From contig OY762911.1 of assembly GCA_963666565.1 (NCBI GenBank), forward strand, positions 2,400,001-2,464,000: 64,000 nt of DNA. Reading direction: 5' to 3'. A model generated the notes under the pieces. That model searched no databases and was not told the DNA's origin. It saw only the letters and a program-made list of their open reading frames with translations. Origin of the DNA: Thermoanaerobaculia bacterium (lineage in GTDB: Bacteria; Acidobacteriota; Thermoanaerobaculia; Multivoradales; Multivoraceae). The stretch's first letter is position 1, and each line of letters starts with the position of its first letter. Shown here one piece after another: positions 5,456 through 63,117 of the stretch. A program made the translations under genes and the position numbers.

Positions 5456-5604
5456 GGGTGCGCGGGCCTTCCGACCCGCCGGGTGCGCGGGTCTTCCGAC
5501 CCGCCGGGTGCGCGGGTCTTCCGACCCGCCGGGTGCGCGGGTCTTCCGACCCGCCGGGTGCGCGGGTCTTCCGACCCGCCGGGTGCGCGGGTCTTCTGAC
5601 CCGC
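5456..5604 (+). repeat. Six tandem copies of the REP-like unit GGGTGCGCGGGTCTTCCGACCCGC(C)
   Basis: 25-bp period, no spacers; internal hairpin GCGGGTC-TTCC-GACCCGC. Confidence 0.95.
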
Positions 5605-25260: not shown

Positions 25261-26037
25261 ATGACCGCCCCGAACTACGAGCAGATCCTGGTCGAGGACC
25301 GGGACGGTACCCGCATCCTCACTCTGAACCGGCCGGACAAGCTGAACGCCTGGACCCGGCAGATGAACTTCGAGCTGGTGGACGCGATCGAAGCCGCCAA
25401 CGCGGACCCCGGGCTGTCGGCCATCGTCGTCACCGGGGCGGGACGCGGGTTCTGCGCCGGCGCCGACATCGGGGCCCAGTTCAAGGCCCGGCTCGACGGC
25501 GGCGAGGCCGGAGCGGAGGCCGACCGCACGCCCCCGCGCCCGTGGGTGGAACTGGTGCGGGAGTCGAAGCCGATGATCGCCGCGATCAACGGCGTCGCCG
25601 TGGGCGTCGGGATCACGCTGGCCCTGCCTTTCGACGTCATCGTGCTCTCGGAACGCGCCCGCGTCGGCATGTTCTTCGTGCGGATGGGGCTGGTGCCTGA
25701 ACTCTGCTCCTCCCACTTCCTCGTGCAGCGCGTCGGCTGGGCGAAGGCGAGCGAGATGTGCCTGACCGGAGCCCTCTACGACGCCGCCGAACTCGAGGCG
25801 ATGGGCTTCGCGAACGCCGTCGTGCCGCACGACGAGACGCTGGGTCGCGCGCTCGAACTCGCGGCCCGGATCGGCAAGAACGCCGACAGTTCCCTGCGCG
25901 CCGTCAAGCGGCTGCTGACGAAGAACGGCTCATCGCACGATCTCGGCGAGGTCCACCGCCGCGAATCGGAGGAACTCCGGGCGGCCTACCAGAGCGACGC
26001 TCACCGCGAAGCCGTCGCCGCCTTCATGAAGCGCTGA
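25261..26037 (+). CDS. Enoyl-CoA hydratase/isomerase family protein
   Basis: LNRPDKLNA, FCAGAD, AAINGVAVG, GLVPE. Confidence 0.92.
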   Translation: MTAPNYEQILVEDRDGTRILTLNRPDKLNAWTRQMNFELVDAIEAANADPGLSAIVVTGAGRGFCAGADIGAQFKARLDGGEAGAEADRTPPRPWVELVRESKPMIAAINGVAVGVGITLALPFDVIVLSERARVGMFFVRMGLVPELCSSHFLVQRVGWAKASEMCLTGALYDAAELEAMGFANAVVPHDETLGRALELAARIGKNADSSLRAVKRLLTKNGSSHDLGEVHRRESEELRAAYQSDAHREAVAAFMKR

Positions 26038-26051
26038 CCCGCTGGCTGGCT

Positions 26052-26104
26052 GGGTGCGCGGGTCTCCCGACCCGCCTGCTGGGTGCGCGGGTCTTCTGAC
26101 CCGC
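26052..26104 (+). repeat. Two REP-like units
   Basis: Variants of GGGTGCGCGGGTCTTCCGACCCGC. Confidence 0.85.
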
Positions 26105-26152
26105 TTGCCGGCGTAGCTGGCCAGAAACCGCGCCGGCCGTCAGGCCGGCTCC

Positions 26153-34415: not shown

Positions 34416-37005
34416 GGTCTATCCCCGCGGGTGCGGGGGAACCCGCCCGATGGACACCGGCAAGCTGGCGGAGTCGGGTCTATCCCCGCGGGTGCGGGGG
34501 AACCAGGCCGGCCAGCCGATCGGCCACGTTCGCCGGGGGTCTATCCCCGCGGGTGCGGGGGAACCGAGTTCTTCCGGCGCGTGCTGGACGAGGGACTGGG
34601 TCTATCCCCGCGGGTGCGGGGGAACCGTGTACGCGCCGATCACGGGCTCGGAGCCGTCGGGTCTATCCCCGCGGGTGCGGGGGAACCAACCCCGGCGGCG
34701 CCGTCGCCGACGGCAAGGAGGGTCTATCCCCGCGGGTGCGGGGGAACCCCCGCGGCCGTCAGCGCCGTGCCGACCCGCTTGGGTCTATCCCCGCGGGTGC
34801 GGGGGAACCGGCCCGGCCGACGGCCTCTGGTGGGCCGACGTGGGTCTATCCCCGCGGGTGCGGGGGAACCGCAGGATGCGATCAACGCCTGCCGCAAGGC
34901 GGAGGTCTATCCCCGCGGGTGCGGGGGAACCGGCGATCGTTCTGTGCGCCGGAGATCGTCAGCAGGTCTATCCCCGCGGGTGCGGGGGAACCCGCGGATG
35001 GGACGGGCGGTCCGATGCCGTGCTGGGTCTATCCCCGCGGGTGCGGGGGAACCGGACGCCCCGATCGACTACGTCCGGGAGGATCGGGTCTATCCCCGCG
35101 GGTGCGGGGGAACCCTCCCGCAAGTTCCAGAAGGCAGGGGTACGGGGGGTCTATCCCCGCGGGTGCGGGGGAACCGAGGAGCGGCCCGACCTCCCGCGAC
35201 AGCCACTCGGTCTATCCCCGCGGGTGCGGGGGAACCACCGTCGACCTCGAGGGCATCCTGACCATCGAGGGTCTATCCCCGCGGGTGCGGGGGAACCGAG
35301 CGCCCTCACTTCCTCGCCTCCACGGCGTGAGGTCTATCCCCGCGGGTGCGGGGGAACCTACGAGCAGGAGCATGAGAACCGCACGATCGAGGGTCTATCC
35401 CCGCGGGTGCGGGGGAACCGTGGCCTTGGCCAGGTCGCGGGCGAGGTCGTGGGGTCTATCCCCGCGGGTGCGGGGGAACCGCCCCCCTGGCGGAGCCTCA
35501 GGCCCCAGATCAGGGTCTATCCCCGCGGGTGCGGGGGAACCGCCCCGGAACCGATCGGCCGCGTCCTCGCCCTGGGTCTATCCCCGCGGGTGCGGGGGAA
35601 CCGTCTACCAGGGCGCGAACGACGTGACGGACGAGGGTCTATCCCCGCGGGTGCGGGGGAACCCAGGTCGGCGAGGCCATCGACACGGGCGAACGGGGTC
35701 TATCCCCGCGGGTGCGGGGGAACCTGGCGACGACCGACTCCAGCGCGAACATCCCGAGGTCTATCCCCGCGGGTGCGGGGGAACCGAGCGCGCCCAGGGC
35801 GACGCGCCGACGGTCACGGGTCTATCCCCGCGGGTGCGGGGGAACCCTCCTCGCCCCGGAACACGCCGCCGGAGAAGGCGGTCTATCCCCGCGGGTGCGG
35901 GGGAACCACCTTGCACCGGCAGCCCCAGCCGTTCGGAGGGGGTCTATCCCCGCGGGTGCGGGGGAACCTCGCCGGCCTTGATGGCGGCGGCAAGCGCCTT
36001 GGGTCTATCCCCGCGGGTGCGGGGGAACCACGCGGCACCGATGAAGCGAGGAGGAACGATGAGGTCTATCCCCGCGGGTGCGGGGGAACCCGCCGGGCCG
36101 CCATCCTCCGCGACGTACTCGAGGGTCTATCCCCGCGGGTGCGGGGGAACCGGCAGCGACTGGGCGGCGACGGACCGGCTGTTGGGTCTATCCCCGCGGG
36201 TGCGGGGGAACCCGCCTGTTCCTCCACCTCCACGTCGTAGGTCGAGGTCTATCCCCGCGGGTGCGGGGGAACCCAGTCCGTCTGGCCGGCCTGATCCGGC
36301 GGCAGGGGTCTATCCCCGCGGGTGCGGGGGAACCACCAGGGAGCTCGCGTAGCTGGAGAACAGATCGGGTCTATCCCCGCGGGTGCGGGGGAACCCTCGG
36401 CGGGAGCGGCCGGCGTCTCGGACATGGCGGTCTATCCCCGCGGGTGCGGGGGAACCGTGACCTGCCGTTTCCGGCGTCGCAGGGCAACGGGTCTATCCCC
36501 GCGGGTGCGGGGGAACCTAGGCGGGACATACATACATACAACCGCACGGCGGTCTATCCCCGCGGGTGCGGGGGAACCCATCAAAAGGTAAGAGTCAAAG
36601 GATCCAGCAAGGGTCTATCCCCGCGGGTGCGGGGGAACCTGGAGCGATCAGCACGTCGCGTGGTTGCTCGGGGGTCTATCCCCGCGGGTGCGGGGGAACC
36701 GGTGTCGCATGTGGGTCTGGACATCGATCGCGGGGTCTATCCCCGCGGGTGCGGGGGAACCCTGAACGACGCGACTCGCGCGCCGGAGGAGCGGGGTCTA
36801 TCCCCGCGGGTGCGGGGGAACCATGTTCCGGCAGGGAGAGGATCAGGCGCGGAACGGTCTATCCCCGCGGGTGCGGGGGAACCAGCCGCGCCGATTGGTG
36901 GATCGAGCAGGAAGAGGGTCTATCCCCGCGGGTGCGGGGGAACCCTGGTCTTGATCGTCGCAGCGTCGCAAGCGTTGGGTCTATCCCCGCGGGTGCGGGG
37001 GAACC
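34416..37005 (-). CRISPR. Type I-E CRISPR array, 43 repeats and 42 spacers
   Basis: Repeat GGTCTATCCCCGCGGGTGCGGGGGAACC (+ strand), exact 61-bp period; orientation inferred from cas2 and leader. Confidence 0.99.
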
Positions 37006-40947: not shown

Positions 40948-41515
40948 CGGTATGCGTCTCCTTGGCTCCTGGGTTTAGCGTGGCTTCAAGATCGGCGCGG
41001 TAGTACTCGCGGGCGATCCGTCGACATGCCCGCCGGGCTGCGGGGGTGTTGTCGCCGGCCAGCACGAACTGGCCTAGCCCGAGCAGATTGAAGCGCTTGA
41101 AGTCGGTGCGAGCCAGTCGCCGGCAAATGCGGACCACGAGGTCGGACCGCTGGTCCGACGGTGCTGCGAGTAGCCGCGCAAGGCGTAGTTCCGACACGCC
41201 GGCCTGGAAGAGGGCCTTGCCCATGGACAACTCCTGTTGGTGCGCGGAGGCATTGTCCTTTCTCCGCCCCTTCGGTGTCAGGATCGCGACGGCCTGAATC
41301 ATCGCCGCCCATCTCTGTTCGTCGCCATCGGCACTGTAGCGGGTCAGTAGCCTCCAGAAGGCCGCCGCGCCGGCACCGCTCAGGGGGTCGTGGCGAAGAG
41401 CGGCGGCCGACCCCGGGTCGAGACGCGCGATCTCCGCCGCCAAACTCGGGATCACGTTCCCGAGATTCCCCGAACCTTGCGCCGTCCTCGCTGTTTCGGT
41501 GTCGCTACTCGACAT
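40940..41515 (-). CDS. cse2: Cas11 (Cse2)
   Basis: Small helical protein between cas8e and cas7; SELRLARLL, IAREYY. Confidence 0.88.
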   Translation of the reverse strand: MSSSDTETARTAQGSGNLGNVIPSLAAEIARLDPGSAAALRHDPLSGAGAAAFWRLLTRYSADGDEQRWAAMIQAVAILTPKGRRKDNASAHQQELSMGKALFQAGVSELRLARLLAAPSDQRSDLVVRICRRLARTDFKRFNLLGLGQFVLAGDNTPAARRACRRIAREYYRADLEATLNPGAKETHTDA

Positions 41516-43088
41516 TGGCAGGCTCCCGTGCGGTGAAGATCTCCGGCTGATCGGCGAACACGCTCCTGTTGCCGCGGAGACTTCCATAGAAGGCGCTAAA
41601 GGCACGCGCTCGCGCCCGGTGTCGCCGGATCGCTGGGCAGGGCACAGATTCGACAGCGTCTACGAGGAGCGCGTCCGCGGCGGCCACCATGCCCCGGGCG
41701 AAGTTCGCGCGCTCCCCGTGGGTGCCGGCTTGCCGGCTGGCGGCGAACCGCTTCTCGACCGCATCGAAGAACCGCGAGTCGACCCACGCGTCCAGCCGGC
41801 GGGCGTACGGCCTGGCGAACGTTCGGTCGTTCTTGCTCAGGTCGCCCAGCATCTTGCCGCCACTTGCGGCGACAGCTACTCCGAGCCGCAATGCGCGCGA
41901 GACCTCTGCGATCTCCTCAAGAAGATCGCCGCTAATGGCCGCCAGTTCGTCGCGTTCTTCTTTCCGGCCGAAGGCTGCGGCGACTCCCGGGGCGAAGACG
42001 ATGTCCTTCCGCTCGTGGTAGCCATCGGTCTTGCCTTGGCCGCCTGCCATGCCTCGGGCCACTACTCGCCACCGTTCCTTGCTAGCTGCGGAGACGATCA
42101 TCGCTGGCGGAAGATCGTAGGCGGCCTTATCGAAGAGGAGCCTGTTCAGGCGGTCGTACCGGAATCCGGCGCTAGACAGCGACAGCGCTTTGGCATCGCC
42201 CGTGCTGACGGGCGTCCAGAAGTCGCCGACGTTGCCGCGGGCGGCCTTGGCGGCGACCCGGCTCGTCTTTGACCCAGCCGTCTTCGCCACGATTCGCCGA
42301 TTCTCGACACGCAGGCGCACGCGCCGACAGATCTCGATGAAGTAGGGGTCCAGGTCGCCCAGGTCGAGCGACGTTTCGCCGTCCCACGGGACGGTCCAGA
42401 GAAGAGCCGTTCCGTTCTCCGGGCGGTAGTAGTCCGGGAGGCGGTTCAGTAGTTGCGGGCGATCCTCCAGCATCTGCTGGATGTCGTGAAGGAGGTGTGC
42501 GCCGAAACCACCGCCAGCAGGCGCGAGCCCAAGGCAGGGTCGAGCCGAGAACCCGCCGTTCATGCGGGCGATCCCGTAGTTGCCGGCGCCGAGAAATCCA
42601 GCCATCGTCTGCAGGTCGATCAAGGCAAACACCCAGTCGTCCGGTGCATTCGCCCGGGCGACGTCCTGCTTGACGTCGTGGTTCTTGGACGTCACGAGGA
42701 GATCGAGGTCATCGGGCGTGGCAACTCGCCGGCGATACTGGCTGAGCGTGTCGCCCGCCGGGCACTGCATGAAGGCTGGCTTTGCAGGGTCGTTGACGAC
42801 CAACTGCCACGGTTCGTCGCCGTCGAACTCCGGCGTCAGCCTGCGTATTACCGAGCGCCACTCGGCTGCGGCGCTGGGAAGAGCCGTCGCCTCAGCCCGT
42901 TGGACGGCGAGTGTGCCGAGCTGGGCGACAAAGGCGTGCCAGGCGTGTCTTTGGTGGGGCCGCAAGGCCGGGAACGCGGCGACTGTATCGGCCGATGCCT
43001 TCTCGAAGACGTCCGGCAGCGACATCGCCTCGGAGTGGTCGTGGGCGAGACGAACTCGAATTAGTGGATCAGTGAGGAGGTTGTACAT
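41505..43088 (-). CDS. cse1: Cas8e (Cse1)
   Basis: YNLLTDPLI, AFMQ, GAGNYGIARMNGG, EICRRVRL. Confidence 0.92.
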   Translation of the reverse strand: MYNLLTDPLIRVRLAHDHSEAMSLPDVFEKASADTVAAFPALRPHQRHAWHAFVAQLGTLAVQRAEATALPSAAAEWRSVIRRLTPEFDGDEPWQLVVNDPAKPAFMQCPAGDTLSQYRRRVATPDDLDLLVTSKNHDVKQDVARANAPDDWVFALIDLQTMAGFLGAGNYGIARMNGGFSARPCLGLAPAGGGFGAHLLHDIQQMLEDRPQLLNRLPDYYRPENGTALLWTVPWDGETSLDLGDLDPYFIEICRRVRLRVENRRIVAKTAGSKTSRVAAKAARGNVGDFWTPVSTGDAKALSLSSAGFRYDRLNRLLFDKAAYDLPPAMIVSAASKERWRVVARGMAGGQGKTDGYHERKDIVFAPGVAAAFGRKEERDELAAISGDLLEEIAEVSRALRLGVAVAASGGKMLGDLSKNDRTFARPYARRLDAWVDSRFFDAVEKRFAASRQAGTHGERANFARGMVAAADALLVDAVESVPCPAIRRHRARARAFSAFYGSLRGNRSVFADQPEIFTAREPANVE

Positions 43089-43100
43089 GGTTGTGGCCTC

Positions 43101-43190
43101 GCGCTCTCCCCGCTATGGCGGGGTCGCGATTTCATCAAGCGCTTCCGTTGCTCCGCGTACGGGTCAATCTCCGATGAGGTCGGAGGGGTT
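43101..43190 (-). ncRNA. Degenerate mini-CRISPR (crRNA-like regulatory RNA, CreA/CreR-like)
   Basis: Two pseudo-repeats starting at 43101 and 43162 (61-bp period) keep a 6-bp stem; spacer matches 43537-43558. Confidence 0.85.
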
Positions 43191-43257
43191 GGCGCGATTC
43201 TTGGCTGCTACGATTCGGAGCATCGTCGATGAGCAACCAAGTCGGTGATGGTCGTAG

Positions 43258-43330
43258 CGGTCCCGGCCGGAGTCGAAACCGGCATCTCGCCTTTGTTCTT
43301 CGGCGCGTCTTGACCTTAGACGACAGGACC
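43258..43330 (-). ncRNA. tRNA-like cloverleaf with aberrant anticodon and T loops
   Basis: Acceptor GGTCCTG/CGGGACC, D stem GTCT/AGAC with GG in loop, stem CGCC/GGCG, T arm GCCGG-TTTCGACT-CCGGC; ends G-CTA, not CCA. Confidence 0.7.
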
Positions 43331-43513
43331 GCTACGGGTTGGCCCGCCGGGGTGTCTCCCCGGCGGGCGCTGTTGTTCAGGGGACGACGCGCGAAGACCA
43401 ACGGGTCGGTACTTCGGCAGCGAGGGCTCGGTGTAGCGAGTGGCAGTTCAAGGGGATTCCGCATGTCGTCCTTCCTCAGAGCGGTCATTGCGCCCGGTCA
43501 GGGCGCGTCGCCA

Positions 43514-43561
43514 ACCATAGCACAAGACAGACTGTCGCGCCTCCGTTGCTCCTCGTACGCT
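43514..43561 (-). promoter_or_regulatory. Predicted promoter with mini-CRISPR target site
   Basis: Extended -10 TGcTATGGT (43522-43514); protospacer 43558-43537 preceded by AGC. Confidence 0.65.
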
Positions 43562-43690
43562 ACAGATGAGGACTCGATGCAGCGTTCAGCCGTCGGCGGC
43601 AAGTTGACGACTGCCCGGGCGAGCTTACGGCTCGCCCGTTTTGAGCGAGCGGTACTCCGCCACGCCCTCGCCCCACCGCGTCGGTCTGTC

Positions 43691-46306
43691 TCACCAAGCA
43701 GTGACTGAAGAAGCCGAGGATTCCTCAGGTCGGACTCCGGTCCGATCGTAGGTCAGTCGAGCGTCGCCGACCGTCAGAACGAGGGTGCTGGCCGCGGTAG
43801 GTTCGGCTCGTGCGGCCTCGATGTCCTCCTTCCTGGGCAGGCCGCGCCGGAACATGTGAGCCGGGAGGTTGAAGGTACGGACCTCACTGCCGAACGGTCC
43901 GGCTAGCGGGGACGGGAGTTCGATTCGCGGGCCGTCTTCGCCCAGTCGGGTTCGGACTTTGGAGTCCAGGTCCGCGAAGACGAGGTCCCCGTCGAAGGGC
44001 TCTTCCCGCGTCAGCGCGTGGTTCCTCGCCGCGACGGCCTCGGCGGAGTTTCTTCCGACCACCTTGCTCAGGTGAGAGAGCCAGTCTTCGCCGAGCGTCT
44101 CAGCCGACTCGCGCAGCACCTGTGGGTGAGTCCCGCGCTCGACCAGCGTCCTGTTCATCTCCGGGACGGTCCAGGCCGGGTGGTCCTCGATGAGCCTCCG
44201 CGTTGCCTCGATTCCGACGAGGTTCGTGTAGATCCCGCCGCGGTCCGAAACGCCGAGCCCGTGTTGCAGGAGCGAGCCGTCGAGCCCTGCCGCCAGCCCC
44301 GAATCCGGCACGAGAACGAGGCAGCGGGCATCCTTGAACGCTGCCGGGCGTTCGTTCGGTGCGTGGCGATGCAGTCGCCCGAGCCGCTGCAGCAGGACGT
44401 CTACGGGGCAGATGTCCGTGATCAGGTAGTCGGCGTCGATGTCGAGCGACTGCTCCAGCGTCTGCGTGCCGATGACGATTGTGCCGCCCGGTGGACGACT
44501 CTCCTTCCCCAATTCCCGTTCGACGGCGGCGTCCAGCAGTCTTCGGTCCTCGGCGGCGAACCGGCTGTGGTGTAGCGCCGGTCCGCCTGCGACCGCAAGC
44601 GCCAGATCGCTGCCGCCCTGGTCCACCAGCGCGGCGAAGACGGCCCGTGCGCTGTCCACGGTGTTGCGAACGACGAGCACCTTGGCATCGTTCTGCGCCG
44701 CACGGAGCGCTTTGCGGGCGATTGCTCCTGGTTCGCCCAGGAACGCCGCCGTGGACATTGCGACCGGCTTGGACGTGCCCGTCGTCCGGATAGGGGTCAC
44801 CCGGAACTCGCCGCGGCCGTCCGCGAGCGTCATGGCGGGGTAGGGGACGGCCTCGGCATCGCTTGGCGATGGCGTGGCGTAGCGGTTGGTCTTCGAGACG
44901 AACTTGGAACTCGCCGCCGAACCCAGGGTGGCCGACATGAGCAGGGCGTGGCCTCCCAGCGTGAGGTGTCCCCGCAGGACGCCGCGCAGTACCTGCGTCA
45001 TGTAGCCGTCGCTGGCGTGGACTTCGTCCACAACGAGCAGGCTGCCGGCAAGGCCAGCCGCCCGGAAGTGCGCCCACTTCACTTGCAGACCTGCGAGGAG
45101 CGCCTGGTCGACCGTCCCGACCGCCGCTGGGGCCGTCAAGTACTTGCGGGCACTCTCGGCCGACCAACGGGCAAGCCGCTTCGCTTCGTCGGGCTCGTCC
45201 TCCCAGTAGACCTCGAACTTCTCTGCTCGGCGTCCTTCGGAATCTCCGGCCCGGAGGTAGCCCGGCACCGCCAAAACCGTCTCTGCGTTGGCAGTCGACG
45301 GGAAGAGCCGGTCCAGCGCCCGATGGACGCGCGCGTGCAGTTGTTTCGCTGCGGACCGAGTCGGAACGGCGAAGTAGAGACCGTCTACGACTCCTGCGCG
45401 CCACAGGGACGCGAATCGCAAGATGGCCGCTTCCGTCTTGCCGGACCCGGTCTCGCTCTCCAGAATCAGGAGAGGGCTGTCGAGCGGCGCCGAAGCCACG
45501 GCGGTCTGCAGAGGCCGCGGCTCGGCGTAGTTGAACAACCTCCTCACATCGGCGACCGGTGCGCCCTTCGGCCAAGCAGACCGGGCGAACCCCTTGCTCG
45601 CGACTGTCCCTGCGGCGATGCGGCGAGCGCGCTCGATGTAGGACGGGTCCGGGTCCGGCTCGTGCTTGAAGGCATCTTCGTCCGAGCCCAATTGATCGGC
45701 AATGGCGACGACGCCGGCGAAGAGGTGGGCCAACGCCGGCACGTCGGGGACCGGAGGTCCAGACTTGAAGGAGTCGGGGAACCACGCCCGTCCCCGCTCG
45801 TAGAGCAGCTTCGCGGTGGCTCGTGGTTCGTAGCCTCCGAAGGGCTGCCACAGCTCGGCCGGGCCTCTTCCCGTGCGCGATGGCCGCCGAGCCGGTCGGC
45901 CGTGATGGGCGAGCGCCGCGTAGAGAAGAGGCTCGACGCCGCCGCCCCACTCGTCGGCGATGCGATGGAGTCCCAGGAGTTCGCAGAGTCCGGGCTGCGC
46001 GAAGCTCAGCAGCGCCTCTCCGATGTGTCCGGCTGGCCGCGGGCCTCGCCGAACCGCTCCGCCGGATCGCGGCACCTTGAACTGAAAGCCGGCGTTGAGC
46101 TTGCCGAAATCGTGCAGGTAGGCGAGGTACGTCAGTCGGGCGGCGAGCGTGTCGTCGAGAACCGGCGCGCCCGCGGCTCGGGCGAAGCGGGCGCGTAGCA
46201 CGGGTTCGCCGATCAGTGCTTCAAAGCAGGCCGCTACGTCGGCACAGTGATGCTCCAGCCGATGGAAGCGTCCCGTTGCTTCGTCGAACTTCCCCCATGC
46301 GTCCAC
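43691..46306 (-). CDS. cas3: Cas3 HD nuclease-helicase
   Basis: HDFGK, ETGSGKTE, DEVH, SAT, HSRF, QRLGRLHRH. Confidence 0.97.
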   Translation of the reverse strand: MDAWGKFDEATGRFHRLEHHCADVAACFEALIGEPVLRARFARAAGAPVLDDTLAARLTYLAYLHDFGKLNAGFQFKVPRSGGAVRRGPRPAGHIGEALLSFAQPGLCELLGLHRIADEWGGGVEPLLYAALAHHGRPARRPSRTGRGPAELWQPFGGYEPRATAKLLYERGRAWFPDSFKSGPPVPDVPALAHLFAGVVAIADQLGSDEDAFKHEPDPDPSYIERARRIAAGTVASKGFARSAWPKGAPVADVRRLFNYAEPRPLQTAVASAPLDSPLLILESETGSGKTEAAILRFASLWRAGVVDGLYFAVPTRSAAKQLHARVHRALDRLFPSTANAETVLAVPGYLRAGDSEGRRAEKFEVYWEDEPDEAKRLARWSAESARKYLTAPAAVGTVDQALLAGLQVKWAHFRAAGLAGSLLVVDEVHASDGYMTQVLRGVLRGHLTLGGHALLMSATLGSAASSKFVSKTNRYATPSPSDAEAVPYPAMTLADGRGEFRVTPIRTTGTSKPVAMSTAAFLGEPGAIARKALRAAQNDAKVLVVRNTVDSARAVFAALVDQGGSDLALAVAGGPALHHSRFAAEDRRLLDAAVERELGKESRPPGGTIVIGTQTLEQSLDIDADYLITDICPVDVLLQRLGRLHRHAPNERPAAFKDARCLVLVPDSGLAAGLDGSLLQHGLGVSDRGGIYTNLVGIEATRRLIEDHPAWTVPEMNRTLVERGTHPQVLRESAETLGEDWLSHLSKVVGRNSAEAVAARNHALTREEPFDGDLVFADLDSKVRTRLGEDGPRIELPSPLAGPFGSEVRTFNLPAHMFRRGLPRKEDIEAARAEPTAASTLVLTVGDARLTYDRTGVRPEESSASSVTAW

Positions 46307-46383
46307 GCCAAGGTCCTCGCTTCCACGCTGGAGCGCACCCGTCGCGCGCCACTAGCATCGGCCCTGGCATGGTACGCGACCCG

Positions 46384-46887
46384 ATGGACCCCTTCGTGGC
46401 GATCGACTTCGAGATAGCCAACGCACGCCACGACAGCGCCTGCGCGGTCGGGCTTGCCGCTTGCAGCGGCGGCCACGTGGTGCAGTCGCGCAGCTATCTC
46501 ATCCGGCCTCCCGGCAGGCGGTTCACTTTCACTGGAGTCCACGGCCTGAGTTGGGACGATGTGCGCGAGGCGCCGACGTTCGCCGACCTCTGGCCGACGC
46601 TGCGGGAGTGGCTCGCTCCGGCGCGGTTCGTTGCCGCTCACAACGCGAAGTTCGACCGCAGGGTGCTGCAGGCCGGCTGCGCTCGCAACGGTTTGCGGGC
46701 GCCACGGAAGCGCTTCGTCTGCACCGTGGAACTGGCCTGGGCCCAATGGGATGTCTCGTCGGCCAGATTGCCCGACGTCTGCCGTCGACTGGACATCCCT
46801 CTCCGGCACCACGACGCGGGCTCGGACGCTCTGGCTTGCGCTCGGATTGTCCTTGCCGCGCAGGCGGCTGGCTGGAGGCTCCGGTAG
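46384..46887 (+). CDS. DEDDh 3'-5' exonuclease (DnaQ-like)
   Basis: IDFE, AHNAKFD, HHDAGSDA. Confidence 0.9.
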   Translation: MDPFVAIDFEIANARHDSACAVGLAACSGGHVVQSRSYLIRPPGRRFTFTGVHGLSWDDVREAPTFADLWPTLREWLAPARFVAAHNAKFDRRVLQAGCARNGLRAPRKRFVCTVELAWAQWDVSSARLPDVCRRLDIPLRHHDAGSDALACARIVLAAQAAGWRLR

Positions 46888-46925
46888 ACCGAGGAGGCGA
46901 TCGATCATGGTACCGTTGTACGGCC

Positions 46926-47132
46926 ATGACTCAAGTGACCCTCTCGCCCAAGTACCAGGTCGTCATCCCGCTCGAGATCCGCACCGCTCTGCGACTCGAG
47001 CCAGGCCAGAAGATCCAGGCGATTCGCGTCGGCCGCTGCATCGAACTGGTCCCGGTCAAGCCGATGAGGGAGTACCGGGGATTCGCGAAGGGCATCGACA
47101 CCGCGGTCGCTCGCGAAGCCGATCGACTGTGA
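46926..47132 (+). CDS. AbrB/MazE-family antitoxin
   Basis: LSPKYQVVIPLEIR...L.PGQ. Confidence 0.9.
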   Translation: MTQVTLSPKYQVVIPLEIRTALRLEPGQKIQAIRVGRCIELVPVKPMREYRGFAKGIDTAVAREADRL

Positions 47133-47500
47133 ACGTCGTCGACTCGTCGGCGTGGATCGAGTACTTCGCCGATTCCGAGCGCGCGGATCTGTACGAGGCG
47201 CCCATCCTGGACACGGGGGAGCTTCTCGTGCCGGCGATCTGCCTCTACGAGGTGTTCAGGGTCATGTCCAGGCAGCGCTCCGAAGTCGAAGCCCTCGAGG
47301 CCGTTGCGGCCATGCGGCAAGGCAGGGTCGTCGAGTTCACGGCCGATCTGGCGGTTCTCGCCGCAAGGCTCTCCCTCGAGCACTCGCTGCCGATGGCCGA
47401 CGCCTCGATCCTCGCAACCGCCTACTCCGAGGAGGCGGAGCTGTGGACCCAGGACGCGGACTTCGAGGGGCTGCCGGGCGTACGCTACTTCCCCAGGTAG
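47129..47500 (+). CDS. vapC: PIN-domain toxin
   Basis: VVDSSAWIEY, LYEV, MADASILATA, WTQDADF; GTGA overlap with the antitoxin. Confidence 0.92.
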   Translation: MNVVDSSAWIEYFADSERADLYEAPILDTGELLVPAICLYEVFRVMSRQRSEVEALEAVAAMRQGRVVEFTADLAVLAARLSLEHSLPMADASILATAYSEEAELWTQDADFEGLPGVRYFPR

Positions 47501-52567: not shown

Positions 52568-52768
52568 GGGTGCGCGGGTCTGCCGACCCGCATGGGTGCG
52601 CGGGTCTTCCGACCCGCATGGGTGCGCGGGTCTTCCGACCCGCATGGGTGCGCGGGTCTTCCGACCCGCTGCCGCCGCAGGCGGCCAGGTATTCGCGCCG
52701 CGAAGCGGCTCCGCCGGGCGACCTCCAGCGCGGTTTCGCCGGAAGCGGGTCAGAAGACCCGCGCACCC
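52568..52768. repeat. REP-like cluster: four tandem copies and one inverted copy
   Basis: Copies start at 52568, 52594, 52620, 52646; inverted copy at 52745-52768. Confidence 0.92.
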
Positions 52769-60915: not shown

Positions 60916-63117
60916 ATGTCGAGAACCGCCAGCAGTCTGCCGGGTCCGCGCCGTCTGCCGGGTGCGCGGGTCTTCCGACCCGCCCTGGGTGCGCGGGTCT
61001 TCCGACCCGCTGCCGCCGAAGGCGGCCATGGAACGCGCCGGCCGCTGGGTGCGCGGGTCTTCCGACCCGCTGCCGCCGAAGGCGGCCATCGAACGTGCCG
61101 GCCGGAGGCCGGCTCCGCTCTCCTCCCCGGCGCCTCCGCCGTGCTGGCCGTACTCTTCGGTCTAGCCGCAGCCGCCGCCGTGGCCGAAACCGGCGAGCAG
61201 GGCCGCTCCGCCCACGGCGAGTGGCGGCACCACGGCGGCGACCACGCCTCCAGCCGATACTCGCCGCTCGCCCAGATCGACGGTTCGAACTTCGGCCGGC
61301 TCGAAATCGCCTGGCGCTGGCGCACGGCGGATCACGACGTGCCGCTGGACGTGCTGCCCGGCTACGACACCGGCTTCTACCGCTCCGTGCCGCTGATGAT
61401 CGGCGGCCGCCTGTTCGCGCCGACCAGCCTGGGCCAGGTCGCCCTGCTCGAGCCGGCGACCGGCGAGCAGAAATGGGTCTACAACCCGAAGACCTGGGAA
61501 CGCGGCGGCACCACGATGCGGCCGGTCGGCGCTCGCGGCATCGAGTACTGGTCGGACGGCGAGAAGGAGCGCCTGTTCGTCGCCACGATCGGCCGCCAGC
61601 TCGTCTCCATCGACGCCGCCACCGGCTTGGCCGACCGAGCCTTCGGCGAGGACGGCACGGTGGACCTGGCCCGGGATCTCGGCCCCGGCGACTACGCGAT
61701 TCGCCACATCACCCACGGAGCGCCGCCGATCGTCGTCGGCACGAGCGTGATCGTCGGCTCGAAGATCTTCGACTACTCGATCCGGAGCGACGCGCCGCCC
61801 GGCCACGTCCGCGCCTACGACGTCCACACGGGCGAGTTCAAGTGGCGCTTCAACACGATCCCGCGCGACGACGAGTACGGGGTCGAGACCTGGGAGAACG
61901 AGTCCTGGCGCACGGCCGGCAACGCGAACGTGTGGACGTCGATGAGCGCGGACCACGAACTGGGCTACGTCTACCTGCCGACCAGCACGCCCTCGAACGA
62001 CTACTACGGCGCCGACCGGCCCGGCGACAACCTGTTCGCCGAGAGCCTCGTCTGCGTCGACGCGGAGACGGGCGAGCGCGTCTGGCACTTCCAGACCGTC
62101 CGCCACGGCATCTGGGACTACGACATCGCCTCGGCCCCGAACCTGCTCGACATCGTCGTCGACGGCAAGCTGGTCAAGGCGGTCGCCCAGGTCTCGAAGA
62201 CCGGTTTCACCTACGTCTTCGACCGGGCCACCGGCGAGCCGGTGTGGCCGATCGAGGACCGGCCGGTGAACCACGAATCGACCGTGCCGGGCGAGAAGCT
62301 GGCGGAGACACAGCCGTTTCCGACGAAGCCGCCGGCGTTCGAGAAGCAGGGAGTCAGCGAGGACGACCTGATCGACTGGACGCCGGAACTGCGGGAGGAG
62401 GCGCTCGAGATCGCCGGGAAGCTGATCCTGGCGCCGATGTTCCCGCCCCTGATCGTCCAGGGCGAAGGGGGCAAGGAGGGCGTCGTGGTCGTGCCCGGCG
62501 CGGCCGGCGGTGCGAACCACCCCGGAGCCTCCGTGGACCCGGCGACCGGCGTGCTCTTCGTCGAGTCGCAGAACCGGCCGGTCGGCATGTCCCTGATCGA
62601 GCCGGACGCGGCCCGCCGGCCGGACTGGCGCTACGTGATCGACTACGTCGACACCGGGGGCCCTCGCGGCCTGCCGCTGTTCAAGCCGCCGTACCGGACG
62701 ATCACCGCGATCGACCTGAACCGCGGCGAGCACCTCTGGCGGATCCCGGTCGGCCCCGGCCCCAGGGACCACCCGGCGATCGCGCATCTGAACCTCGGCG
62801 ACATGGGCACCCGCTACATCGGCATGCCGGCCGACGGCGGCCTGCTCGTCACCCGCACGCTCCTGATCGGCTTCCTGGCCCTGCCCGACGAGGAGAACCC
62901 CCGCACCAGCCGCGGCGGCCTCCTGCGCGCCTACGACAAGGCGACCGGCGAGGTGCTTGCGGAACTCGAGACCGACGTCTGGCTCCACGGCCCGCCGATG
63001 ACCTACATGCACGAAGGCCGACAGTACATCGTCATCGCCGGCGGCGGCGCCCGCAACCGCCGGATACCGGACGAGTTGATCGCCTTCGCCCTACCGGATT
63101 CCGAGATGGGAGGATAG
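60916..63117 (+). CDS. PQQ-dependent dehydrogenase
   Basis: YSPLAQID, HGIWDYD, PIEDRPV, PMTY; REP copies in the N-terminus so start uncertain. Confidence 0.88.
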   Translation: MSRTASSLPGPRRLPGARVFRPALGARVFRPAAAEGGHGTRRPLGARVFRPAAAEGGHRTCRPEAGSALLPGASAVLAVLFGLAAAAAVAETGEQGRSAHGEWRHHGGDHASSRYSPLAQIDGSNFGRLEIAWRWRTADHDVPLDVLPGYDTGFYRSVPLMIGGRLFAPTSLGQVALLEPATGEQKWVYNPKTWERGGTTMRPVGARGIEYWSDGEKERLFVATIGRQLVSIDAATGLADRAFGEDGTVDLARDLGPGDYAIRHITHGAPPIVVGTSVIVGSKIFDYSIRSDAPPGHVRAYDVHTGEFKWRFNTIPRDDEYGVETWENESWRTAGNANVWTSMSADHELGYVYLPTSTPSNDYYGADRPGDNLFAESLVCVDAETGERVWHFQTVRHGIWDYDIASAPNLLDIVVDGKLVKAVAQVSKTGFTYVFDRATGEPVWPIEDRPVNHESTVPGEKLAETQPFPTKPPAFEKQGVSEDDLIDWTPELREEALEIAGKLILAPMFPPLIVQGEGGKEGVVVVPGAAGGANHPGASVDPATGVLFVESQNRPVGMSLIEPDAARRPDWRYVIDYVDTGGPRGLPLFKPPYRTITAIDLNRGEHLWRIPVGPGPRDHPAIAHLNLGDMGTRYIGMPADGGLLVTRTLLIGFLALPDEENPRTSRGGLLRAYDKATGEVLAELETDVWLHGPPMTYMHEGRQYIVIAGGGARNRRIPDELIAFALPDSEMGG
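60960..61087 (+). repeat. Three REP-like units
   Basis: Copies at 60960, 60987, 61047; two carry a TGCCGCCGAAGGCGGC tail. Confidence 0.9.

Follow-up and report, generated by a model that had tools for sequence, protein, structure and literature searches.

A tRNA-derived RNA domain in the predicted CRISPR-regulated leader of a type I-E Cascade operon

What fills the 602 nt between cas3 and cas8e in a type I-E CRISPR locus (short palindromic repeats, clustered and regularly interspaced) from an uncultured genus of Acidobacteriota, and how could this spacer bear on the Cascade operon downstream of it? The DNA analysed is a stretch of 64,000 nt from a Thermoanaerobaculia bacterium (contig OY762911.1), called the window below, and all coordinates of the module in question are read on its minus strand. 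A sequence-only reading of the window had proposed a CRISPR-regulated module in this spacer, and the protospacer, the hairpin, the cloverleaf with the shape of a transfer RNA (tRNA), the mini-CRISPR and the cas8e start codon that it listed are all present where it had placed them, as judged from fold scores and from the repeat match. We conclude that the module belongs to a regulator type already described and bears an RNA domain that is new: a degenerate one-spacer array of the CreR type, preceded by a GC hairpin and an 82-nt domain, by its sequence derived from tRNA-Gln, both of which are predicted to be built into the Cascade leader.

The mini-array is formed by two degenerate repeats, psiR1 and psiR2, and a single spacer, psiS, which is the guide. 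The features of a CreR two-repeat unit (degenerate repeats, one spacer, a handle and a Cas6 hairpin, position within a cas locus) were all found. In psiR1 the array stem CCCCGC/GCGGGG is replaced by another that keeps the Cas6e-type hairpin, and the 5' handle reads ATTGACC followed by C, compared with ATAGACC followed by a variable base in the 43 repeats of the canonical array. With guide position 1 at 43160 and target position 1 at 43558, guide and target match over 22 nt and are mismatched solely at positions 6 and 18. The target lies 398 nt upstream of the guide on the same strand, and the direct repeat formed by the two (43161-43139 and 43559-43537) has 21 of 23 bases identical. Across the 4.79-Mb genome a degenerate 17-nt guide pattern matched exactly at the guide and at the target and nowhere else, and its counts with two mismatches were those of a reversed-pattern control. 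One more place in the window's own genome (G000:C1:4608315-4608331, 16 of 17 matching) was considered as a second target and rejected; it lies within a long open reading frame (ORF) and was judged a chance match.

The stretch from the hairpin to cas8e was found by DNA searches in 7 of the 42 genomes of the genus, the own one counted. Guide and target were compared in 8 loci, namely these seven and G010 (genomes and loci are given by our G and L numbers where needed, W being the window locus and G000 its genome). The seed varies in step in guide and target (GTACG..GGAGCAAC, GTGTG..GGCGCAGC, GTTCG.. and GTATG..). Positions 1-20 hold 24 mismatches, 19 of them at positions 6, 12 or 18; counted as cells, 19 of 24 are mismatched at these positions versus 5 of 136 elsewhere in the same range (Fisher p 7e-16, a value overstated since the loci are related). 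Every sixth guide base is unpaired in type I-E effector complexes. For type I-F1, mismatches at every sixth position are stated in the available part of a preprint on mini-arrays (bioRxiv 10.1101/2023.03.03.530964).

Guide-target pairing always ends by about position 22, and mean pairwise identity is 0.74 for guide positions 1-22 and 0.37 for positions 23-32. In three loci, L003 (G009), L004 (G004) and L086 (G010), the guide is exactly 12 nt shorter (25 versus 37 nt, counted from handle to psiR2 stem), which equals two Cas7 steps fewer. E. coli Cascade tolerates shortened spacers with altered stoichiometry, according to the accessible text of PMC5159557. The pattern of pairing and mismatches would be the signature of Cascade binding without cleavage, and the guide-target pair appears to be under selection of the kind imposed by Cascade. 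The one-spacer array is very probably a Cascade guide of the CreR/CreA type, and here the earlier proposal of such a guide held well. Licensing of Cas3 is the background to pairing that ends early in CreA and CreR guides. The early end is a known CreA/CreR way to bind without triggering Cas3, as described in the part of the Salmonella CreR preprint available to us (bioRxiv 10.1101/2023.03.10.532045).

The target is flanked by a trinucleotide resembling a protospacer adjacent motif (PAM). Positions -3 to -1 read AGC, ATT, AGT (five loci) and AAT in the 8 loci, with A at -3 in all of them, while -2 is G, T or A and -1 is C or T. The base 29 that follows each 28-nt repeat of the canonical array is variable too (C 31, T 6, G 5, A 0; n=42). 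In E. coli the last repeat base derives from the PAM. By this analogy the variable base looks copied from the PAM at spacer uptake, and its preponderance of C would point to a PAM that mostly ends in C; the -1 base of the flank (C or T) agrees with it. Over the seven module loci the mean pairwise identity is 0.78 for PAM and target, 0.76 for psiR1 and 0.94 for psiR2.

This layout is not confined to loci with the RNA domain. Cas8e relatives occur in 10 of the 42 genomes of the genus, and in the Cas8e tree the seven module loci fall in a clade with 97/99 support. Two further loci belong to this clade and lack cloverleaf, guide and target: G027, which has lost the entire module so that cas3 and cas8e adjoin, and the metagenome locus L075, where psiR2 alone is left before the contig end. 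Outside the clade, G010 has TTGACA, 18 nt, TAGTGT, the target, a 190-nt leader and the mini-array, without hairpin or cloverleaf. In the metagenome loci L076/L077 the target comes right after a TATAAT box, and a leader of about 230 nt leads from it to the mini-array. The mini-array of G015 (L087) is inverted, in L022 a single hairpin resembling a repeat precedes cas8e, and L016-L020 have no spacer between cas3 and cas8e. The covariance model built for the cloverleaf found no cloverleaf in 9 more distant loci (L016-L020, L022, L075-L077), and in the genus-wide scans the sole match in G010 was a true tRNA-Glu and G015 had none.

Since the cloverleaf is missing from the more distant loci, the regulatory layout seems to be older and wider than the cloverleaf, and since G010 and L076 have the same layout without it, autoregulation would be the base function, with hairpin and cloverleaf as an addition. 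That the spacer is a CreR-type autorepression unit of the Cascade operon can be proposed with high confidence. Joint conservation of cloverleaf, guide and target, which the sequence-only reading had named as a check, is found in seven loci, with joint loss in two, but G010 and L076 have guide and target without the cloverleaf. The interpretation given in that reading stands in part, for the guide with its target and for the tRNA-shaped RNA, with ordinary CreR autoregulation as the base function, whatever the cloverleaf adds.

A promoter can be predicted at the target from the homologous loci. In G009, G004, G013, G036 and G010 the motif TTGAC(A/G) is followed 18-19 nt later by the hexamer TAGTGT, which overlaps the PAM and the first two target bases; the window counterpart, TAGCGT at 43562-43557, is the predicted -10 element. 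In G062, TTGACA-N17-TAGAGT is found about 25 nt further upstream. A second candidate -10 element lies downstream of the target (Table 1), and either placement would be blocked by Cascade on the target. No guide-only promoter was found in the linker upstream of the mini-array, by eye or by consensus scan.

The leader that follows the target has a mean pairwise identity of 0.37 in the seven loci. A protein-coding leader was considered and rejected: the ORF at 43135-43488 has no Pfam match, is frame-shifted in G033 and broken in G036, and G013 and G036 differ in it by 2 synonymous and 11 non-synonymous changes, as read from the alignment by eye. The leaders carry motifs like a Shine-Dalgarno (SD) sequence and a start codon, but frame, codons and length are not conserved (the frame is broken in two of the seven loci), and the conserved design of translation signals and rare codons of known CreT toxins was not found in the seven leaders. 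Of the traits that define a CreTA toxin gene, namely translation signals, special codons and a stable stem, the stable hairpin is present and the reading-frame design is not conserved. The plus-strand ORFs 43229-43708, 42580-43248 and 43339-43569 have no Pfam match.

The GC hairpin consists of 11 G-C pairs and folds at -26.8 kcal/mol (z -5.6, 0 of 200 shuffles as good). It is present in six of the seven module loci, with an identity of 0.64 and with paired changes (GGGG/CCCC, GAGG/CCTC, GAGC/GCTC); G062 has a different, weaker hairpin in its place. On the minus strand no U tract follows it, and it does not have the form of an intrinsic terminator there. The linker has a mean pairwise identity of 0.59 in the seven loci and contains a second, small hairpin.

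Between the GC hairpin and the linker stands the cloverleaf. Its 73-nt core (43330-43258) folds at -31.3 kcal/mol (z -2.4, 3 of 200 shuffles as good) and, with the full 12-bp closing stem (folded as 43340-43250), at -44.9 kcal/mol (z -4.3, 0 of 200). In the seven CRISPR copies 91.7% of 180 cells are paired, versus 28-44% in slid controls; four pairs change on both sides, the observed covariation measures are reached by 1-3 of 500 shuffles, and RNAalifold independently predicts the same four helices. The tRNA-shaped RNA between target and guide that had been noticed in the window is therefore conserved in homologous loci, where it covaries. G036 (L006, about 1440-1530) has the 5' strand and D arm (28 nt) in three tandem copies; L006 and L021 (G036) are sequence-identical and may be one assembly.

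Several features relate this domain to tRNA-Gln(CUG) and tRNA-Glu genes. In a side-by-side alignment the D arm is nearly identical to that of tRNA-Gln, the variable region has 4 nt, and the loop of the T arm is canonical or nearly so. The D loop AAGGUCA is invariant but for a C-to-U change in G009; the T loop has the canonical 7 nt in G013, G036 and the three full-length relatives described below, and one extra U (8 nt) in five of the seven CRISPR copies. At the level of sequence and secondary structure the elements of a tRNA elbow are present, namely a four-way junction, the GG of the D loop and a UUCRANY-type T loop. Within the closing stem, the inner 7 bp and the next base correspond to the acceptor and discriminator of a tRNA. 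Unlike tRNA-Gln and tRNA-Glu, five further pairs join leader to trailer and close the acceptor at 12 bp, CUN stands in place of CCA, and a 4-bp stem with a purine-rich 10-nt loop (consensus RARGARCNAM) takes the place of the anticodon arm.

The covariance model scores the window cloverleaf at 107 bits. It also matches true tRNAs of the own genome in sense (Cys 33.4, Glu 30.2 and Thr 28.9 bits) and cross-matches true tRNA-Gln at 34-43 bits. Two simpler identities were rejected. A tRNA gene finds no support, with no gene called by ARAGORN in the window and no Rfam match at gathering score or at E up to 10. Descent from one particular tRNA of the own genome is weak by plain alignment (score 28 versus a shuffle mean of 20.2, sd 2.5, max 31); the best such alignment covers the T arm only, and the covariance model is more informative. 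No Rfam tRNA-like family (tmRNA, YrlA and others) matches the window or the locus of the relative described next. By these sequence likenesses the cloverleaf clearly derives from tRNA-Gln, and its conservation marks it as a real conserved RNA domain outside the families of Rfam. Because of its closed 12-bp stem, the lack of a CCA end and its 10-nt loop it is predicted to be unable to decode, and it would be neither matured nor charged like a tRNA.

With the first model a second copy was found in the own genome (G000:C1:1240282-1240364, 52 bits). Copies of this kind also occur in G030 and G061, with a truncated one in G018 that was left out of all alignments, and all of them adjoin a Sel1-repeat gene. 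Compared with the CRISPR copies every stem differs, with compensation. Common to both are the closure by 12 bp, the D arm, the motif of the 10-nt loop, an AGAU linker and the T loop. When the three full-length relatives are added, 17 of 26 pairs change on both sides, in an alignment that was fitted to the model and so leans that way. The unit of the relative (G000:C1:1240282-1240475, which is L024 1501-1694, minus strand) has no mini-CRISPR beside it. It is preceded by AAGGAG, a GTG or ATG start and an 8-codon frame with codons 2-3 UCA AGA (UCG AUA in G030); a rough codon table of the own genome places AUA, UCA and AGA within its 11 rarest sense codons. This frame of SD, start codon and rare codons appears to resemble the CreT design. 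Two local 29-nt hairpin repeats, 121 nt apart, lie upstream of the relative. In G061 a gene for a HigA-type antidote (dnstrm_HI1420 and HTH_3; L037 628-1092, plus strand) is convergent to it, by which the spacer on the Sel1 side seems to collect small accessory modules.

Since the cloverleaf is tRNA-Gln-derived and the genus holds other degenerate tRNA-Gln-like sequences, such as L064 with its 6-nt loop, the domain could be taken for a decaying tRNA-Gln pseudogene, left for instance by integration and now without function. Such a relic is extremely improbable. Compensatory changes keep all four helices in the 7 + 3 sequences, the derived features (12-bp stem and 10-nt loop) are common to two diverged lineages, and mean column identity is 88% in the cloverleaf's own alignment as against 0.37 in the flanking leader. 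In the whole-module alignment the identity of the cloverleaf is 0.71, lowered by a 56-nt insertion in G036.

The cloverleaf family has a narrow range. Among 57 genomes of the taxonomic family it was found in 9, all of one genus (the seven CRISPR copies and the relatives of G030 and G061), and 15 genomes of 12 other genera of that family gave no match. A sample of the order (151 genomes, the own one and 19 others of the genus included) gave 16 weaker matches outside the genus, of which the 9 checked are all true tRNAs (8 Gln-CTG, 1 Glu). The 5 model matches in a phylum sample of 150 genomes are likewise true tRNAs (Gln 3, Glu, Met). A degenerate 37-nt pattern had no match in the JGI metagenome contigs, and blastn against phages and plasmids gave no cloverleaf match. 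As a side observation, L064 (G008:C16:93770-93850) is a degenerate tRNA-Gln-like sequence with CUG in its 6-nt anticodon loop; it is called 'tRNA-???' by ARAGORN and does not lie at the Sel1 locus.

A number of results weigh against the reading of the spacer as a Cascade-regulated leader with an RNA domain on the cas strand. A sigma-70 consensus scan of 42900-43800 returned no promoter site; the promoter that the sequence-only reading had predicted at 43561-43514 was thus not called, and its elements rest on the homologous loci. W and G033 have TAGCGT and TATTGT with a poor -35 element. A PAM was not derivable from protospacers: two 24-nt spacer pieces had no match in viral contigs, and all 42 spacers, compared by BLAST with the own genome and the collected loci, gave just chance pieces of 17-26 nt. 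The comparative depth is 7 + 3 full-length sequences, all related, because the family was found in one genus only. Start site, co-transcription, strand and processing of the leader transcript are all predictions; of five sequencing runs listed, four of which cover most of the stretch, none is on record as RNA. As regards the strand, the preference given by pairing is modest (91.7% on minus versus 86.1% on plus; 14 G-U versus 4 A-C cells), the GC hairpin is terminator-like on the plus strand only (1 found, 0.5 expected) with a T-rich plus tail in 6 of 6 loci that have the hairpin, and the G004 variant of the hairpin pairs better on the plus strand.

The observations on the hairpin would fit an antisense RNA running over mini-array and cloverleaf on the plus strand, with the hairpin as its intrinsic terminator and the antisense RNA as the functional product. 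We consider this very improbable. The D arm and T loop match tRNAs in the minus orientation only, the model matches true tRNAs in sense, the 14 G-U cells would turn into A-C mismatches, and no promoter or gene is evident on the plus strand. The tRNA-like D and T motifs together with the sense cross-matches seem to be a stronger argument for the cas strand than the pairing is, and the cloverleaf is very likely to be a functional RNA on that strand.

Table 1. Features of the module and of the type I-E locus, with positions in the window
Feature	Window positions	Strand	Remarks
cas3	43691-46306	minus	871 aa; Pfam Cas3_HD and Cas3-like_C_2, NCBIfam Cas3; gene upstream of the module
PAM-like trinucleotide AGC	43559-43561	minus	adjoins the target
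Target (protospacer)	43537-43558	minus	pairs with psiS positions 1-22; direct repeat, genome-unique, co-varies with guide
Alternative predicted -10 element TATGGT	43514-43519	minus	recurs as CTATGGT downstream of the targets in G062 and G010
Leader	43369-43536	minus	poorly conserved; SD-like GAGGAAGGA (43477-43469), ATG 43464
GC hairpin	43342-43368	minus	11 bp, A-rich 5' flank
Cloverleaf	43254-43335	minus	12-bp closing stem; D arm 43322-43306; 4-bp stem and 10-nt loop 43305-43288 (loop 43301-43292); T arm 43283-43266
Small linker hairpin ACGAT/ATCGT	43210-43226	minus	5 of 7 loci; paired change AGGAT/ATCCT in G013 and G036
psiR1, degenerate repeat	43161-43190	minus	compensated stem CUCCGA/UCGGAG and 5' handle
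psiS, guide	43129-43160	minus	positions 1-22 pair with target; 23-32 never match
psiR2, degenerate repeat	43101-43128	minus	CCCCGC/GCGGGG Cas6e hairpin stem kept
cas8e/cse1	41505-43088	minus	ATG at 43088; Pfam/NCBIfam Cse1/CasA
Canonical CRISPR array	about 34416-37005	minus	43 repeats (28 nt and one variable base), 42 spacers

We propose that the cas3-cas8e spacer is a regulated 5' leader of the Cascade operon. From a promoter at or beside 43562-43514 a transcript would run through the leader, the GC hairpin, the cloverleaf, the mini-CRISPR and cas8e to cas2. Cas6e would cut psiR1 and psiR2 and release a guide resembling a CRISPR RNA (crRNA), of the CreR/CreA type, and Cascade loaded with it would bind the PAM-flanked site 43558-43537, with positions 1-22 paired but for the flipped-out 6 and 18. 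Since this pairing would stop too early to license Cas3, Cascade would stay on the promoter and lower the transcription of its own guide and genes. The negative feedback would be relieved when crRNAs titrate Cascade or when Cascade is blocked. The cloverleaf, which is likely to be co-transcribed with the guide, would serve, embedded in the leader, as a tRNA mimic bound by a partner that recognises tRNAs, and its dose would follow the occupancy of the promoter by Cascade. The conservation of its loops beyond the elbow points to a specific partner rather than to a mere processing or stability fold, and we hold the chances of a partner-binding mimic and of a mere structural element to be about even. 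Taken as a whole, an autoregulatory leader with an embedded, partner-binding tRNA mimic is probably the best explanation. Depending on the putative partner, the cloverleaf could be a toxin, could feed into the regulation of the cas leader or could signal processing.

Hairpin and cloverleaf might instead act purely in cis, as a module by which the guide-cas8e precursor is processed or stabilised (an entry or stop signal for RNase P/Z or RNase E, or a 5' protective fold), with no partner in trans beyond the RNA-processing enzymes. The two are embedded in a 5' leader, the 12-bp closing stem insulates folding, and the A-rich tract before the strong hairpin recalls an RNase E site followed by a protective stem. 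The tRNA elbow, conserved here, is a recognition feature of RNase P and also counts for an element in cis. In Haloferax, engineered crRNAs flanked by t-elements are released by RNase P and Z, as given in the accessible text of PMC6546412. On the other hand, the 10-nt loop and the AGAU linker are kept between the CRISPR copies and the Sel1-side relative though all stems have changed, and recognition by RNase P needs neither. Moreover, the conserved pairing of leader and trailer speaks against ordinary end maturation of the tRNA type, the Cas6e sites are already enough to release the guide, and G010 does without the cloverleaf. We find a role restricted to cis rather unlikely.

If the embedded mimic has a partner in trans, it could be the RNA toxin of a CreTA-like addiction unit, kept low by Cascade and the guide, whose derepression on loss or inhibition of Cascade would titrate a tRNA-handling factor and arrest growth. 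The cloverleaf lies within a Cascade-targeted unit in all seven carrier loci, its loops are conserved beyond the needs of a mere stem, and in the module clade cloverleaf and guide are kept or lost together (seven loci with both, two with neither), although coupling cannot be shown from just two losses. The tRNA supply is what known CreT toxins act on in the available parts of the reports (PMC8501985, PMC10097628), and the Sel1-side relative follows the mini-ORF described above, whereas the leader has no such conserved mini-ORF. A toxin in this place would, however, be on the same transcript as its antidote and the Cascade genes, and G010 and L076 have the layout without it. The relative is also present in G061 (88% complete) and G018, in which no Cas8e or Cas7 match was found with the queries used, and in G030, where just a 33%-identical Cas7 is found; its presence in genomes without a close Cascade suggests that the family is not tied to this Cascade. 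We regard addiction or abortive infection through the cloverleaf, the outcome that the sequence-only reading had proposed, as unlikely. More speculative still, and a shade less probable, is the idea that the cloverleaf founds a new class of Cascade-controlled RNA effectors as the first tRNA-shaped CreT, a tRNA-Gln mimic that would rise on loss of Cascade or its block by an anti-CRISPR, titrate a tRNA-handling factor and stop growth, with the Sel1-side unit as its free-standing relative.

The type I-E locus around the module is complete by Pfam and NCBIfam matches, with cas3, cas8e, cse2, cas7, cas5, cas6e, cas1 and cas2 on the minus strand of the window down to 37122. The closest named records for Cas8e are metagenome-assembled genomes titled Thermoanaerobaculia bacterium or Candidatus Multivorans (Acidobacteriota). 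Cas8e is uninterrupted in 7 of 7 module genomes and Cas7 in all 6 other module genomes searched, the window Cas7 ORF being a full-length Pfam match. A 224-aa ORF (46234-46908, minus strand) that overlaps the start of cas3 has no Pfam or NCBIfam match; homologues with 35-68% identity stand upstream of cas3 in 7 of 7 other loci fetched for this comparison, module-less ones included (G027 and G010 were among the seven, G036 was not). Divergent from cas3, an ORF at 46559-47500 (plus strand) has a PIN/VapC domain at residues 193-304. The idea of a VapC decoy was dropped: this PIN part was seen only in the window and G013 among the module loci compared, and for the same reason a link of the ORF to the module was discarded. 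At 5456-5604, 26036-26108, 52568-52669 and 60985-61104 the window has short tandem arrays whose unit, a GC-rich palindrome of 25-29 nt (GGGTGCGCGGGTCTTCCGACCCGC-like), looks like a REP-type repeat family.

Autoregulation of Cascade by degenerate mini-CRISPRs is already established, and to it the locus adds an unusually clean comparative case, with co-variation of guide and target and a six-base rhythm of mismatches. What is new is a conserved tRNA-derived RNA domain in a Cascade-controlled leader, which is not described in the CreR, CreTA and mini-array papers searched. A tRNA-like cargo was not found in the literature on CRISPR mini-arrays, CreTA or RNA anti-CRISPRs that we searched, in agreement with what had been supposed of such a cargo in the window, and supplementary tables may hold such loci. 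As a toxin, the cloverleaf would add to the means known by which CRISPR systems become indispensable to their hosts; as a sensor or processing element, it would be nature's equivalent of the engineered cassettes of tRNA and guide. In both cases it stands for an RNA family that is new and absent from Rfam.

Among the known systems, the Haloferax icrRNA is the one that joins tRNA and guide: the crRNA is flanked directly by engineered t-elements, where RNase P and Z make the cuts instead of Cas6 (PMC6546412, in the part available). The module resembles it in having a tRNA-like structure beside a crRNA in what is predicted to be one transcript. It differs in that 63 nt separate the cloverleaf from psiR1 downstream of it, which has retained a Cas6e hairpin of its own, and in that it is not engineered; among the papers listed by our literature search for natural units of tRNA-like RNA and crRNA there was no natural case.

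With CreTA (type I-B of Haloarcula, PMC8501985; type I-F of Acinetobacter, PMC10097628; and P. aeruginosa) the module shares a Cascade guide whose target lies at the promoter, here a predicted one, of an adjacent small RNA, and a guide-target duplex unpaired at the 6th and 18th positions, the Acinetobacter CreA being unpaired at the 6th, 11th and 18th (PMC10097628). As far as the accessible text of these reports goes, CreT RNAs are mini-ORFs with SD, start codon, rare or special codons and a stem-loop, which sequester a tRNA and do not mimic one. No CreT described there is tRNA-shaped, unlike the cloverleaf, which is known here from sequence alone (PMC8501985, PMC10097628).

According to Shmakov et al., about 19% of the type I-E loci of bacteria have a mini-array between cas3 and cas8 (bioRxiv 10.1101/2023.03.03.530964, in the portion available to us). 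As in the module, where the promoter is a predicted one, their spacers are partly complementary to the cas8 promoter, with mismatches tolerated every sixth position. In their example of the E. coli type the target is downstream of the mini-array, whereas here it is upstream. Their main text describes no structured RNA cargo and mentions tRNA a single time, in the title of a reference; the supplementary tables might list some such cargo.

The closest counterpart is CreR of Salmonella enterica type I-E, where a degenerate two-repeat mini-CRISPR in the cas3-casA spacer has been shown experimentally to autorepress the Cascade operon, and where CreR responds to crRNA load and to anti-CRISPRs (both from the available part of bioRxiv 10.1101/2023.03.10.532045). 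The Salmonella guide pairs over 15 consecutive nt with a target that has an AAG PAM and lies about 140 bp upstream of casA, compared with 22 nt and periodic mismatches here. Unlike in Salmonella, the guide follows its target at 398 nt and lies within the leader that it is predicted to regulate, a conserved hairpin and tRNA-like domain stand between the two, and repression is deduced from sequence. In both systems, nevertheless, the mini-CRISPR lies between cas3 and cas8e, the first repeat keeps the 5' handle and the second the 3' hairpin, and the guide is complementary in part to a site beside a PAM at the promoter of the Cascade operon, PAM and promoter being predicted ones in the window.

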